Positions 55,961 to 64,000 of a DNA stretch of 64,000 bases are shown here, one piece after another. A program made the position numbers and the translations under genes. The DNA is taken from the NCBI GenBank assembly GCA_010093995.1, contig ML992516.1:309413-373412 (forward strand). Reading direction: 5' to 3'. The stretch comes from Elsinoe ampelina. Taxonomy: Eukaryota. Numbering within the stretch: the first letter of the stretch is position 1; the number at the start of each line of letters is the position of its first letter. The notes beneath the pieces were generated by a model. It made no database searches, was not told the DNA's origin, and worked only from the letters and a program-made list of their open reading frames with translations.

Positions 55961-57686
55961 TCATTGCACCTTCTTCCCCTCCCTATACTCCTCCGCCAAA
56001 GTCTCATAATCCCACGGCTTATACGGCACCACCAACTCCCTCCACCCACCCCCCTTCCTCCTCCACCTCAACCCCAAATCCCTCACCAACAAATCAAAAT
56101 ACGGCAAACAATCAAACGCCAAATCCGGCAGCGTCGCCCCATAGCCGCACGGATACCGCCACTTGCCCCACTGACTATGCAACACGGCCTCCTCGACCGC
56201 CTCCCCTTCCGTGCCCGCGATCCGCTCCACCCTGCCGTCGAAATACGCGCTGATCCACAACCCCTGCACCGCGGCGCAGATACTCGTCGACACAGTGGAC
56301 ACGGCGCCGGCAAAGGCGATGTTGCGCTTGCCCAACGAGGCGACGGGGATCATGAAACGGTACAGCCTCAGGGGATCTTTGCTATCGGGAACGAAGCGGA
56401 GGTCAGGCTGGGCGGCGAGGGAGGGGAACTGTGACAGGACGGTGGCGTCGGCTTGCGCGGAGAGTTTCTCGAGCTCGACTTTGTCGACGGGGAGGGTGAT
56501 GTTGAAGTTGAGGTAGCGCAGGGAGGGCTCTTTCTTCCATCCTGTGGCCGCGATGAGGACGTCGCTCGGTAGCTTGTCGCCGGTGGAGAGATGCACGGTG
56601 CGAGGGGAGAGGTGGGTCACGTTGGCGATGTGGACGCGGATCTTGCCTGCTTTGACGAGGTCGAAGATGTTGGTTTGGTAGTTGTGGATGGAGAGGCCCG
56701 AGGCGATCCAGAAGGCGCTGTGCCACGGTTTGAGCTTGGCGGTTTCCGGGTGCGAGTCGTACCCGTGCGCGGTGGTCACGTCGTTGCCGAGTGTGGCCCA
56801 GAATTTGCTGACGAGCCAGCGCCCGATGGTGCTGCTGTGGAGCCATCGGCGGATGGTAGGGTAGCCGTCTTCGGGGCCCCAGGGGCAGGGGCTGAACCAG
56901 CTGAGGAAGCGCGTGTGGAGGAGCTCTTCGGTCTTCTTTTTGAGAGGGGTTACGTAGGGAGGGGCGAGCCAGACCGGGCCTTTGCCGTCCGGGCGGATCA
57001 CGAGGTCGACGGTGACACCGGCTTGAGTGTAGGCGTAGGCTACGTCGAGGGCGGATTTGGCGCCACCCAGGATGACTGCGTTCTTGGAGTTTTGGAGAGT
57101 GGCGGATTGGACATAAAAGTCCTTTGCGTGGAAGAAAGGGGCGCCAAAGTCCTTTTCGCCTGGGAAGCTGAGCATGTTGGGCTCTGATGTAAGGCCGGTG
57201 GCGAGAATGATCTTCTTGGTCTCGAGGGTAGTTGTCGATCCGCCTGTGGTTGTGCTTACCTTCCATCCACCTGCGCTGGATGGTTCTATCGAGTTGACCT
57301 TTGTCTCGAAGACGATCCGGCTGAAGACACCAAATTTCTTTGCATAGTCTGTGAGGTATCTATGCAGGGTGGCGGCTGGGATGTGATCGCCATCCTTGAC
57401 CCCGTAGACTTCTTCGCTCATGCGAAAGTCCGGATATTCATATGACCCAGCGATGTTGTTGGACTTGAGACCTGGGTAAAGCCGGTCATTGCCCCAAGTG
57501 CCACCACATGAGTTTGCTGACTCTAGGACTAGGATGTTCTCGGATGGGTGAAGCTCCAGGTATGCTTTTGCACTCGCAAGACCAAACCATCCTATGGCAG
57601 GTTTAGATCGTGTCTAGTAATTTGGTATTTTGAAGCTTACCTGCCCCAACCACCACAAGATCGTACTCTGTCTCTTTGGATGGCAT
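55961..57686 (-). CDS. Class B flavin-containing monooxygenase (FMO-like)
   Basis: YDLVVVGA|GWFG (intron 57640-57592), GGTW, ATG motif, FMO-like fingerprint FGAPFFHAKDF, second Rossmann GGAKSA. Confidence 0.9.
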
Positions 57687-58473
57687 GATGGGTCACCAGT
57701 CACCAATTGCGTGATGTCTCTCGAACCTGTGGGGAATCGATGCTGCGTTCAACACGAGTGGCAAGAAAAAGACATGAATGAAAAACACACGTGCGGGAGA
57801 TCAGGACCGTTTAAGCATCAACCTCAAGCCACCTTCCGACTATCAGTAAAGGCAGACGCGTGGTTGATGCTATCGCTCCCCTCGCCATGTTTGTGTCAAG
57901 ACATCCATCTTATCTCACAAGCGACTGACCTGGTCTCAGAACATACCCGACACGCCTGACCATGAAAACGAGGCTGATACAGAGGCATCTCGTTGCCTGT
58001 GAGTGCTCACACTCTCTACATACAGGGCTCTTATCGCCAAAACGTCCAGAACTGATCCGCCGCTATCGATGCTCCACGCCATTCTCGTTCGGGCAAGGTG
58101 ACCTGCGGGGAGAGCTCCGGTCGATATCAGGGACTTGGCCATAGCTCCAACCTTGTCTTTACCTCTTTCCAGGAGCTTGGTCCTCCAGTACATATCCGAC
58201 GCCCCTAGCCGCCATCACAATGGTGTCCCACCCGCCTACAGTGTACCCGTACGTCCATCGTTTCTGTGTGTACTACCAACACTGCTCCGCATGAATGGAC
58301 CGCAACAAGCCGTGACACATTAGTCCTCACGTAAGTAAGCCTGCAAAGAGCTCAAGAGCACTTGTTGTTCCGTCTCTCTTTCAGACTTGTTGTATCACTC
58401 TTCTTACGTGCAACTCTACCCCAAGTAACAACACTCGAGTCTATCATCATAACTGCATCAAACATCAGCCAAC

Positions 58474-59535
58474 ATGTACGGAAAGATAGCTCTCGAAGAA
58501 GCGTTCGCTCTACCTAGATTCGCAGAGCGGACGGAATGGTGGGCAGGTCTCTTCGCGACTGATCCAGCAAAGCACGCAGCCGAGATCAATGACATCCGGA
58601 CAAAGCGTGTAGAGTATATGGACAAGTACGGTGTAGGCTACACTATTCTCTCATACACAACACCTGGTGTGCAAGATGTCTGGGACCCGAAAGAGGCTCA
58701 AGCACTAGCTGTAGAAGTCAACGACCATGTTGCGGACTCCATCAAAGACATGCCGGACCGTTTCGGGGCCTTTGCGTAAGTTAATATGGCTACAACTCGA
58801 GTGTCCACTGACAGTTCCAGCACTCTCTCCATGCACAATCCAAAGGAAGCTGCCGACGAGCTCCGAAGATGCGTCACAAAGTATGGCTTCAAAGGTGCCC
58901 TCGTCAACGACACCCAGCGTGCCGGTCCAGACGGTGACGACATGATCTTCTACGACCAACCAGAGTGGGACGAATTCTGGTCAGTAGTCACCGAGCTCGA
59001 CGTCCCATTCTACCTCCACCCTCGCAACCCAACAGGCAGCATCCACGACAAGCTCTGGGCAAAGAGAAAGTGGCTCATCGGCCCTCCCCTCAGCTTCGCT
59101 CAAGGCGTCAGCTTGCATCTCCTCGGCATGGTCACCAATGGTGTCTTTGACAGACATCCGAAACTCCAGATCATCATCGGACACATGGGAGAGCACCTCC
59201 CCTTTGATCTCTGGCGCATCAACCACTGGTTCGAGGACATCAAGAAGCCTCTCGGGCTCGCGGAGACGTGCAAGAAGACTATCTACGAGTACTTCAATCA
59301 GAACATCTGGATCACGACCAGCGGTCACTTCTCGAGTCCGGCGTTGCAGCTTAGTATGACAGAGGTGGGGGCTGATAGGATCCTGTTCTCGATTGATTAT
59401 CCGTTTGAGAACTTTCATGATGCTTGTACTTGGTTTGACGCGGTGGAGCTGAATCCGACAGACAAGCGGAAGATTGGCAAGGACAATGCGAGGAGACTGC
59501 TGAAGTTGGACTCGTTCAAGGATAGTGAAAAGTAG
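58474..59535 (+). CDS. dhbA: 2,3-dihydroxybenzoate decarboxylase (amidohydrolase superfamily)
   Basis: [32 protein letters not shown] metal-site motifs; intron 58776-58820. Confidence 0.9.
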
Positions 59536-62474: not shown

Positions 62475-62584
62475 CATCGGGTGGGACGAATGTATGATAT
62501 CATTAAGTGATCTGGTAGTTGGAAGTAAGAGTACAGCTCGTATCTCATCATCGTGGTCTCGTGATGCCCCAAAGGTAGAGGCAG

Positions 62585-64000
62585 CTACATGGTCGGCTGG
62601 TTCATGTAGGGAAAGTTGTCCCATAGTCCCAAGTCCAGACTGTCCCATCCTAGGAGATCTGTCCCGACCATGTCCGCTTCGTCCGGCATGTTGTTGAAGA
62701 TGGGCTGGCTTTGCATCCACATGTCTAGATCGCTGAAGCGGGCTGTGTTGATAAGGCTGTTGATGTCGTCTGCTCCTTCGTCTACGAGGGTTGGTTCTAG
62801 TTGTCCTTGCTGGGTCTGGCTTTGTTGTGGTTGGGGTTGAGGTGTTTCTGGCTCGGTGGTTTTGAATAGTTGTCCCACATAGGCATTGCTTCTTCTTCGC
62901 GACTGCATGGCGAATTGCTGTCTCTGTCTATGTATCGTCTGGGTCAGGCTTGTGAGAATGTCGTGATAGTGTGCGGCTTGGGAGGAGCGAGCGGAGAAGG
63001 AAGCAAGGATATCGCGTGCACCAGCAAACATGGCGTCCGTCTCGAGATCAACTTGGAGCTGGGCGAAGAGAGAAAAGCCAAGGATGAGGGCAGCGGCGAA
63101 GACCAGAGCTCTAAGATGAGGTTAGTAGAGCGAAAAAAGGCATGCGAACCAACGTACTTCATGATTTGCATGTTGGCGAGCAGGAGACCAGAGCGTTGCG
63201 CTTCGAGACAGGCGCGTATGAGCCAGACTGCCGAGTCCACGCAGACCGAGGCGAGTTCGGCATGGACTGGATGCTCTTGTACGGAGAAGCTGTGAAGATT
63301 GTTGTTATTGCTTAGACGTGCCATGCGTGCGGTCAGGGTGGTGATGAGGAATGGTCTAGTGGCGAGGGTCACGGCGAAGTAGTACGTGCAAGCTAGGTGG
63401 AGACTAGATAAGGTCTTTGCAGGGTTTTGAGGGTCTGCCATCATGCCTTGACTTTGCAAGCCTTCAGGGAGGGCGTCGCTCCATTTCTTGAGCTGGTCGA
63501 GAAAAGCTTCAGCTGTAGCTGGTGAGACGCCTTTGTGCCCGTAGACTTTGTCAACAATCTGATCGACGATCTTGACTAGCTTGTACTGAGCAATCAAATC
63601 TTTGCGGTCGTCAAGCTCGCTCTCGAAAAGGGTGAACAGATTGTCGGAGCTCCCAGCTGCTGGAGCAGACGACGGTCGTGCCAGGATGGCGGACACTAGT
63701 AGATCCAGTATGCGTAGGCTCATCCATGTGCGTAGTCTGTGCGGGTCAGTGGGCACACAGCGGGGATTCTTTGCCTGACTCACTGTTGCTGCCTCTCCTT
63801 TTCAGTCACAGATAGATAAGATTCTTGGTGCTGTAGACCGAGCACTGTCGCTGCTCTAGAGGCAACTCCAAGATACATGGATGCTGCATTCCTGTGACAA
63901 GCCCCGAGCATGTAAAAGGACATGAGCAAAAAGACTGCGATCATCTCAATGCTCGGATTCCTAAGCATGGTTGAGAAAGCTCGTTGCTGCCCACGATTGA
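62585..64000 (-). CDS. Fungal-specific transcription factor (Fungal_trans middle domain, probable Zn2Cys6), 3' part
   Basis: FLLMSFYMLGACHRNAASMYLGVASRAATVLGL, RTWMSLRILD..LARP, LTRPFL-like motif, acidic C-terminal tail; DNA-binding domain not in window. Confidence 0.85.

Follow-up and report, generated by a model that had tools for sequence, protein, structure and literature searches.

The 64,000-nucleotide stretch of Elsinoe ampelina DNA analyzed here (the window; positions 309,413 to 373,412 of contig ML992516.1, from a 28 Mb assembly) contains, between its positions 55961 and 64000, a cluster of five genes encoding a flavin monooxygenase (FMO), a 2,3-dihydroxybenzoate (2,3-DHBA) decarboxylase, an SDR (short-chain dehydrogenase/reductase), a protein that fuses a dienelactone hydrolase (DLH) fold to a SnoaL domain, and a Zn2Cys6 transcription factor (TF). 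The best reading, with a probability of roughly two in three, is that this is an inducible catabolic cluster by which oxindole or indole would be converted, through 3-hydroxyoxindole, to anthranilate, and then to 2,3-DHBA and catechol. A preliminary description of the DNA had proposed a fungal route for indole or plant indolic compounds, and this proposal is supported, with the inducer evidence pointing to oxindole-like lactams. The reading draws on the gene content and splicing of the cluster, on homology and synteny, on the loss of a catalytic triad from the fusion protein, and on an SDR whose Fusarium orthologue is induced by oxindole.

The fusion protein is encoded at 61105..62474 on the plus strand (426 aa, intron at 62073-62161) and is identical to a database protein of this length that bears the label Elsinoe ampelina. 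None of its exons matched a Pfam family, and the whole protein matched only SnoaL, below the cut-off (E 5.7e-4); NCBIfam provided no family, and a PDB sequence search with the first exon gave nothing significant. The AlphaFold model consists of two domains (pLDDT 90.9), and comparison of this predicted structure with solved folds matched residues 32-225 to the dienelactone hydrolase 9bld (Z 15.7), with DLH-fold matches in general reaching Z 14-16 over about 180 residues, and residues 229-367 to the SnoaL-like protein 3gzb (Z 16.4). In the model, then, the DLH fold spans residues ~30-225 and the SnoaL/NTF2-like domain residues ~228-367.

The bacterial protein with this architecture is IifA, which converts 3-hydroxyindolin-2-one to anthranilate and is presented, in the portions of the literature available, as a putative oxygenase that works without a cofactor and has a SnoaL fold at its C-terminus (PMC6221969, PMC12538310, PMC7225977). 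The comparators included a Burkholderia record with the complete iifR-A-B-C-D-E order and an Acinetobacter baumannii record with the same genes, and a scan of prokaryote genomes recovered 16 loci with homologues of the fusion, two of which, in Delftia (L011) and Variovorax (L014), have AraC, SDR, StyA-like oxygenase and reductase genes beside the homologue. The Elsinoe protein is 47-51% identical over 220-228 aa to the four proteins from such an iif context, and HHalign aligned the fungal and bacterial profiles over 343 columns across both domains (probability 100%, E 1.6e-87). The suspected relationship with IifA is thus borne out by the sequence and profile comparisons, the gene at 61105-62474 being homologous, over its full length, to the one that encodes the DLH-SnoaL protein in iif operons.

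The two domains have diverged to very different extents. Against 12 bacterial proteins the N-terminal domain is 17-22% identical and the C-terminal domain 43-65%, the SnoaL domain reaching 57-62% with the four iif-context proteins, and 56 of the 64 columns conserved at 90% in both the fungal and the bacterial groups fall after residue 225. Each residue of the DLH triad (Cys, Asp and His) is kept in 10 of the 12 bacterial proteins, with the four from an iif context all among the ten. The triad, with its G-x-C-x-G elbow, is absent from the window protein, which has D129, A174 and P194 at the corresponding columns, and the loss extends to other fungi: the HAF/HGF motif occurs in 2 of 120 fungal sequences versus 10 of 12 bacterial ones, a His stands at the aligned triad column in 30 of 120 fungal sequences, within a poorly aligned loop, and Cys is not among the six commonest residues at the nucleophile column, which together cover 113 of the 120. 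The preliminary description of an IifA-like DLH plus SnoaL enzyme stands as regards the two-domain homology, with the correction that no catalytic triad is left in the fungal DLH domain. Because its Cys, Asp and DHAF His are not conserved, the fusion is unlikely to be a lactone hydrolase, and the database label carboxymethylenebutenolidase is inferred to be wrong for it; this suggests misannotation of a large family that carries this label or that of LEA-domain protein.

With the DLH triad gone from the fungal side, the SnoaL domain is the probable seat of the chemistry common to the fungal and bacterial proteins; among its conserved polar residues are H238, E242, N262, H263, D308, E309, H316, E352, H353 and D357. 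Several bacteria encode SnoaL-only homologues (L020, L021, L110, L111 and L113), and these forms, together with the triad loss, point to the SnoaL domain as the putative site of C2-C3 cleavage. By eye, the SnoaL-only genes of L020 and L021 adjoin a gluconolactonase-like gene and a GntR-like regulator.

The two redox enzymes are not those of the iif operon. The F..H...F motif is the FMO-type fingerprint of class B monooxygenases, and a near-canonical version of it, together with both dinucleotide-binding glycine motifs, is present in the class B, FMO/Baeyer-Villiger monooxygenase (BVMO)-like protein encoded at 55961..57686 on the minus strand (558 aa, intron at 57592-57640 with a spliced joint). 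Pfam assigns FMO-like (above cut-off), Pyr_redox_3 and Lys_Orn_oxgnase; the nearest solved relatives are BVMOs and FMOs, the best at only E 2e-12, and the gene is single copy in the genome. Comparison of the FMO with IifC and IifD revealed no homology (best E 0.048 over 35 aa and E 0.78, respectively), and it lacks the Smoa_sbd domain that IifC carries. The SDR, at 59718..60574 on the minus strand (269 aa, intron at 60156-60202, adh_short_C2), is only 26-27% identical to two IifB proteins, whereas IifB proteins are 56-87% identical to each other; moreover, IifB scores PRK08265 at 457 bits, and this family is not among the best 25 for either SDR exon. Consequently, the FMO is not a counterpart of IifC/D by descent, and the SDR belongs to another subfamily and is not an IifB orthologue. 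Because the FMO is unrelated to IifC and the SDR remote from IifB, the cluster is a parallel assembly and not a transferred operon, and the earlier idea that it parallels the iif operon holds in its logic: an IifA-like homologue combined with an unrelated oxygenase and a different SDR.

This gene set is not confined to Elsinoe. A search of metagenomes gave 80 loci with fusion homologues, 77 of them fungal-looking or other and three near-identical and Pseudomonas-like. In the clade of the window's protein (SH-aLRT 97), 11 distinct metagenome loci have 5 kb of flank or more, and cluster neighbours are found in nine of them: the SDR in six, an FAD monooxygenase in six, the FMO in five, and beside the fusion a TF of the Elsinoe type in three and of the Fusarium type in two (Zn2Cys6 TF homologues adjoin the fusion in L058, L063 and L070/L071). 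Outside the clade 0 of 19 loci have cluster neighbours, a count obtained with these queries only, so that divergent partners would escape it. The genes are thus co-conserved, as had been suggested for checking, and clustered beyond chance. Locus tags tell the same story, with fusion and SDR at most four tags apart in 16 of 23 strains and SDR and FMO in 17 of 18, in a tally collected by hand from hit lists, which omits most JGI-style identifiers, counts several non-independent Fusarium isolates and includes some distant pairs that are probably paralogues. In E. ampelina, E. fawcettii, Sphaceloma murrayae and two E. australis assemblies the FMO and fusion are spaced three accessions apart; in E. 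batatas their accession numbers are far apart though the genes lie on one contig. Over the entries as a whole, 17 of 109 for the fusion come from a contig equal in length to that of one of 77 for the FMO. The FMO-SDR-fusion trio is conserved across Pezizomycotina. At one locus (L091:362-6189) a UbiD-type decarboxylase and an aldehyde dehydrogenase gene stand directly upstream of an FMO-SDR-fusion-TF-FAD monooxygenase cluster, which by its gene content is a larger aromatic catabolic island of the host fungus. Elsinoe also has two divergent fusion paralogues (contig C33, L002; contig C14, L003) that sit among housekeeping genes and form a second, unclustered fungal subfamily.

Information on inducers has been obtained from Fusarium. 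The Elsinoe SDR is 61% identical over 264 aa (E 1e-121) to F. verticillioides FVEG_13979, which falls in the 90% cluster of a top SDR match, and the F. graminearum orthologue is FGSG_07640. A Fusarium FMO homologue, 56% identical to the window FMO, lies three accessions from the FVEG_13979-type SDR in F. oxysporum, F. proliferatum and F. fujikuroi; in F. avenaceum the fusion is followed by the TF and then by the SDR. FVEG_13976 is labelled L-lysine 6-monooxygenase, 13977 carboxymethylenebutenolidase and 13978 a TF; the Pfam family behind the first of these labels is also matched by the window FMO. The labels and the gene spacing in relatives, not the sequences themselves, match FVEG_13976 to the FMO and FVEG_13977 to the fusion. 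According to the accessible RNA-seq data of one study (Gao et al. 2022, PMC10512309), 2-oxindole raises FVEG_13976 by log2 9.6 and FVEG_13979 by log2 9.0, that is, several hundred-fold; 2-benzoxazolinone (BOA) raises them by log2 7.1 and 7.7, and the lactone 2-coumaranone hardly induces this cluster. BOA and chlorzoxazone raise FVEG_13976/13977/13979 10- to 724-fold, and two more clusters respond to oxindole, one of the amidohydrolase/SnoaL/Rossmann/TF type and one with a catechol dioxygenase (PMC10512309). The orthologous cluster thus responds to 2-oxindole, and not only to salicylate, with inducers that point to oxindole-like lactams. Gao et al. interpreted FVEG_13976-13979 as a lactone/ester hydrolase module (PMC10512309), and the term anthranil- is absent from that paper. 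An earlier study, as far as its text was available, found that F. verticillioides metabolizes 2-oxindole completely without MBL1, AMD1 or DLH1, and left the responsible enzyme open (Glenn et al. 2016, PMC4726666).

Some other gene assignments do not hold or lack a tie by sequence. F. graminearum SNK03_009062 is not FGSG_09062, beside FGSG_09061, the fusion of this species being FGSG_07637; ATEG_08886 is not the A. terreus SDR, which is ATEG_08890; and FVEG_06533-06536 could not be linked to the window genes through their sequences, their "SnoaL-like" member possibly belonging to another SnoaL family.

For the lower part of the route, a decarboxylase is encoded at 58474..59535 on the plus strand (338 aa, intron at 58776-58820 with a spliced joint, Amidohydro_2). 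Its exon 2 matches the 2,3-dihydroxybenzoate decarboxylases of PDB entries 7wjr/6m53 with E 4e-137 and 459 bits, versus 298 bits for salicylate decarboxylase and 229 bits for gamma-resorcylate decarboxylase, so that membership in the 2,3-dihydroxybenzoate decarboxylase family is shown by sequence, the activity being known for close relatives. As first noticed, no anthranilate-hydroxylase-like gene is present in 55961-64000. However, a FAD_binding_3 monooxygenase recurs beside the fusion at other loci (L058, L063, L070/L071, L091, L101, L102 and L104), and its Elsinoe orthologue is found on contig C1 at 3267386-3268227 (63% identity, the next match being at ~30%), unlinked to the cluster and among unrelated neighbours. 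This group A enzyme resembles 3-hydroxybenzoate 6-monooxygenases and salicylate monooxygenases, below cut-off, and is a candidate anthranilate hydroxylase. In F. graminearum the decarboxylase FGSG_09061 and the salicylate-hydroxylase-like FGSG_09063 are two tags apart, as can be gathered from parts of PMC8395176 and PMC6331432, and a salicylate-hydroxylase-like protein of Ustilago is reported, in the text available, to be needed for growth on tryptophan, with anthranilate hydroxylation proposed as its role (PMC5082525). Four intradiol dioxygenase loci are present elsewhere in the Elsinoe genome.

The pathway would then proceed as follows. The class B FMO would oxygenate oxindole at C3, or indole at C2-C3, and the SDR would bring the product to the oxidation state of 3-hydroxyoxindole, either by oxidizing indole-2,3-dihydrodiol or by reducing isatin. 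By analogy with IifA, the fusion would convert 3-hydroxyoxindole to anthranilate and CO2 by an O2-dependent C2-C3 cleavage; the SnoaL domain would hold the active site, and the DLH domain would be left as a non-catalytic relic. The unlinked group A FAD monooxygenase, whose relatives are co-clustered with the fusion elsewhere, may hydroxylate anthranilate to 2,3-dihydroxybenzoate, which the decarboxylase, in line with its family, would convert to catechol; cleavage of the latter would fall to the intradiol dioxygenases encoded elsewhere in the genome. The Zn2Cys6 factor is a likely local activator. A broader version can be advanced only tentatively, with somewhat less than even confidence: that this is a fungal gene set for indole/oxindole ring opening, widespread in Pezizomycotina and convergent with the bacterial one around an IifA homologue, in which the SnoaL domain performs the cofactor-independent C2-C3 cleavage and the co-clustered group A monooxygenase family acts as a deaminating anthranilate hydroxylase.

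Several points weigh against the indole/oxindole route. Every reaction except the decarboxylation is inferred, and the bacterial comparators were called IifA from their operon context, not through the characterized Acinetobacter O153 IifA sequence. Only 2 of the 16 bacterial loci in the genome scan carry iifB/iifC within 6 kb, and one of the three plasmid-collection records compared is also without them nearby; with 14 of 16 homologues outside iif operons, family membership does not fix the substrate. In a quick tree of the SnoaL region, unrooted or midpoint-rooted only and with long branches, the fungal sequences form their own clade and are not nested among the iif-context ones, which are themselves split. 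If IifA needs its DLH triad, the fungal reaction would be a different one. Of the 11 in-clade loci, a single one has the decarboxylase next to the fusion. As to expression, the Table 2 available in PMC10512309 gives FVEG_13977 as not significant with oxindole, while the text says that it is induced, and lists 5.8 for FVEG_13978; the two rows may be swapped. Induction by BOA and chlorzoxazone means that the response may reflect a loose sensor, and in A. terreus, according to the accessible data, salicylate modestly raises the FMO ATEG_08888 (log2 2.8) and its neighbour ATEG_08889 (log2 4.5) (PMC7842363).

These observations leave room for other explanations. The same ring-opening logic could act on a substituted or different benzo-fused N-heterocycle, such as auxin or its 2-oxindole derivative oxIAA, an indolic phytoalexin, or a benzoxazolinone- or quinolinone-type lactam, with oxindole as a gratuitous inducer. 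The strong response to BOA and chlorzoxazone fits this, as do the Rieske oxygenases, peptide-type ABC transporters and other genes that adjoin bacterial homologues, and the proposal, seen in part of the literature, that the dioxindole-acetate step of bacterial indole-3-acetic acid (IAA) catabolism needs a SnoaL protein. This explanation is nevertheless unlikely, as BOA detoxification relies, in the account available, on MBL1 and the FDB clusters (PMC4726666), oxindole outdoes BOA for both FMO and SDR, and the linked decarboxylase points to unsubstituted 2,3-dihydroxybenzoate. A cluster for salicylate or another hydroxybenzoate, in which the FMO makes 2,3-dihydroxybenzoate, the decarboxylase catechol, and the fusion serves as a downstream lactone hydrolase, would account for the A. 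terreus response, for the salicylate induction of fungal 2,3-DHBA decarboxylases reported, in the sources as available, for Aspergillus and Fusarium, and for a PcaD-like hydrolase gene 3.6 kb beyond the TF start. Yet such a cluster is improbable given a fusion without the DLH Cys, Asp and DHAF His and a conserved core, FMO-SDR-fusion, that does not include the decarboxylase. Furthermore, the A. terreus expression values are low (3.6 and 18.7 reads per kilobase per million for ATEG_08888 and ATEG_08889) and the SDR ATEG_08890 is absent from the salicylate differential table, as far as PMC7842363 was available; the partial account of an A. niger dhbA deletion describes growth on salicylate as unimpaired.

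An oxygenase, an NTF2-like hydrolase and an SDR make up a common gene trio. The SnoaL domain might accordingly serve as epoxide hydrolase or isomerase in the step that directly follows the FMO, turning an epoxide into a diol for the SDR while another enzyme opens the ring, and limonene epoxide hydrolases and ketosteroid isomerases are among its top fold matches (Z 15.2 and 14.9). These folds are only 9-16% identical to it and tied with many other NTF2-like folds, as opposed to the 57-62% shared with iif-context proteins, for which the reaction reported in the sources available is 3-hydroxyindolin-2-one to anthranilate; this alternative appears slightly less probable still than the salicylate one. 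Finally, the genes could lack a catabolic role, being either chance neighbours or a module that tailors a secondary metabolite, since relatives of the FMO are labelled "FAD-dependent monooxygenase DEP4" in databases and a polyketide synthase (PKS) cluster lies 38 kb upstream. Synteny largely refutes this idea, which is very improbable: the linkage is conserved across classes, none of the long frames examined in nine clustered loci encodes a backbone enzyme, housekeeping genes separate the PKS from the FMO cluster, and the Fusarium cluster is induced by xenobiotics in the data at hand.

All five genes were found in the place and orientation first described, as two divergent pairs (FMO/decarboxylase and SDR/fusion) plus the TF, and FMO, SDR and fusion are in GenBank under the neighbouring accessions KAF2219533, KAF2219535 and KAF2219536. 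The Zn2Cys6/Fungal_trans factor is represented in the window by its 3' part (62585..64000, minus strand, introns at 63111-63157 and 63737-63783); its start is 872 nt past the window end, where the six-cysteine motif can be read, and the full model is 699 aa long. All five models have GT..AG introns and zero internal stops. The six cluster introns inside the window were all seen as spliced joints in contigs, each in 2 to 4 of four runs from three studies, runs that are not recorded as RNA, and the genes are therefore transcribed; the joints cover these six introns, the TF model having two more beyond the window end, and contig depth is not usable to rank the genes. CGGAA half-sites occur in cluster promoters, three of them in the Elsinoe SDR/fusion promoter, and a motif hunt over 14 intergenic stretches found no prominent 7- or 8-mer, so that no motif is claimed.

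As for the surroundings, an amino acid permease gene (53778..55790, plus strand, AA_permease) is indeed adjacent to the cluster, but its membership is not borne out, as no other locus of at least 3 kb that was compared has a permease match. Upstream of it, at 46188-52790, are two aldo-keto reductase genes, a transporter-like gene and a GNAT acetyltransferase gene. The distant PKS cluster, at 3756-18268, comprises a non-reducing enzyme (SAT-KS-AT, two ACP, thioesterase), an O-methyltransferase/FAD-monooxygenase fusion, an FAD monooxygenase and a major facilitator superfamily transporter, a layout which recalls perylenequinone clusters of the cercosporin/elsinochrome type. On the other side, the PcaD-like alpha/beta hydrolase gene (L004:5872-6615), ~4.5 kb past the window end and divergent from the TF, has 3-oxoadipate enol-lactonases as its best NCBIfam match, below cut-off; none lies beside the fusion in the other loci compared, and it could be a lower-pathway gene. 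The 3 kb between TF and hydrolase (L004:2500-5500) are AT-rich (30-38% GC versus 51-60% in the flanks), without long frames, and possibly a decayed repeat.

Both indole and oxindole act as signals and toxins of plants and bacteria, and fungi are known to degrade them with enzymes not pinned down. The fungal indole route is known through early biochemical work on Aspergillus. The A. niger indole oxygenase resisted assay, according to the account available, and genes for the route are missing in the literature searched. That search, which did not extend to most subscription papers, found nothing that links the fungal cluster to IifA or assigns its enzymes, and nothing on FGSG_07636-07640 or FOXG_04023/04026. 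The indole/oxindole reading offers testable genes in tractable species (FVEG_13976-13979, FGSG_07637-07640 and ATEG_08888-08890), a candidate hydroxylase for anthranilate and, for indole chemistry, a new class B oxygenase. It also predicts which domain of IifA is catalytic; the cleavage, if it is true that a SnoaL fold performs it, would be one not yet tied to that fold.

Compared with known systems, the cluster is a widespread variant of a known pathway type, with enzymes unassigned in the literature searched. As in the bacterial iif/ind/WHOP dhoAB-ipoABC operon of Acinetobacter, Cupriavidus, Burkholderia and Pseudomonas, a DLH-SnoaL protein is accompanied by its own regulator, a flavin oxygenase and an SDR. 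Elsinoe, however, uses a single-component class B FMO in place of the StyA-like two-component IifC/D and a Zn2Cys6 factor in place of AraC, lacks the IifE porin, has an SDR of another subfamily and a fusion without the DLH triad, and encodes a 2,3-DHBA decarboxylase where bacteria have an anthranilate dioxygenase downstream. The Fusarium FVEG_13976-13979 cluster shares the orthologous SDR and differs in its order, FMO-fusion-TF-SDR, in a TF that corresponds to another member of the family than the Elsinoe TF does, and in that the decarboxylase is not inside it. The fungal anthranilate-2,3-dihydroxybenzoate-catechol route (DhbA/DhbD, FGSG_09061; Ustilago Srg1/UMAG_12178) is described, in the material available, for tryptophan catabolism; the Elsinoe decarboxylase is a close member of this group but is joined to a putative indole-ring-opening module, with the candidate hydroxylase unlinked. 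With dienelactone hydrolase (carboxymethylenebutenolidase), the fusion shares the N-terminal fold and not the catalytic Cys, Asp and His, while its SnoaL part is the one that has been conserved.

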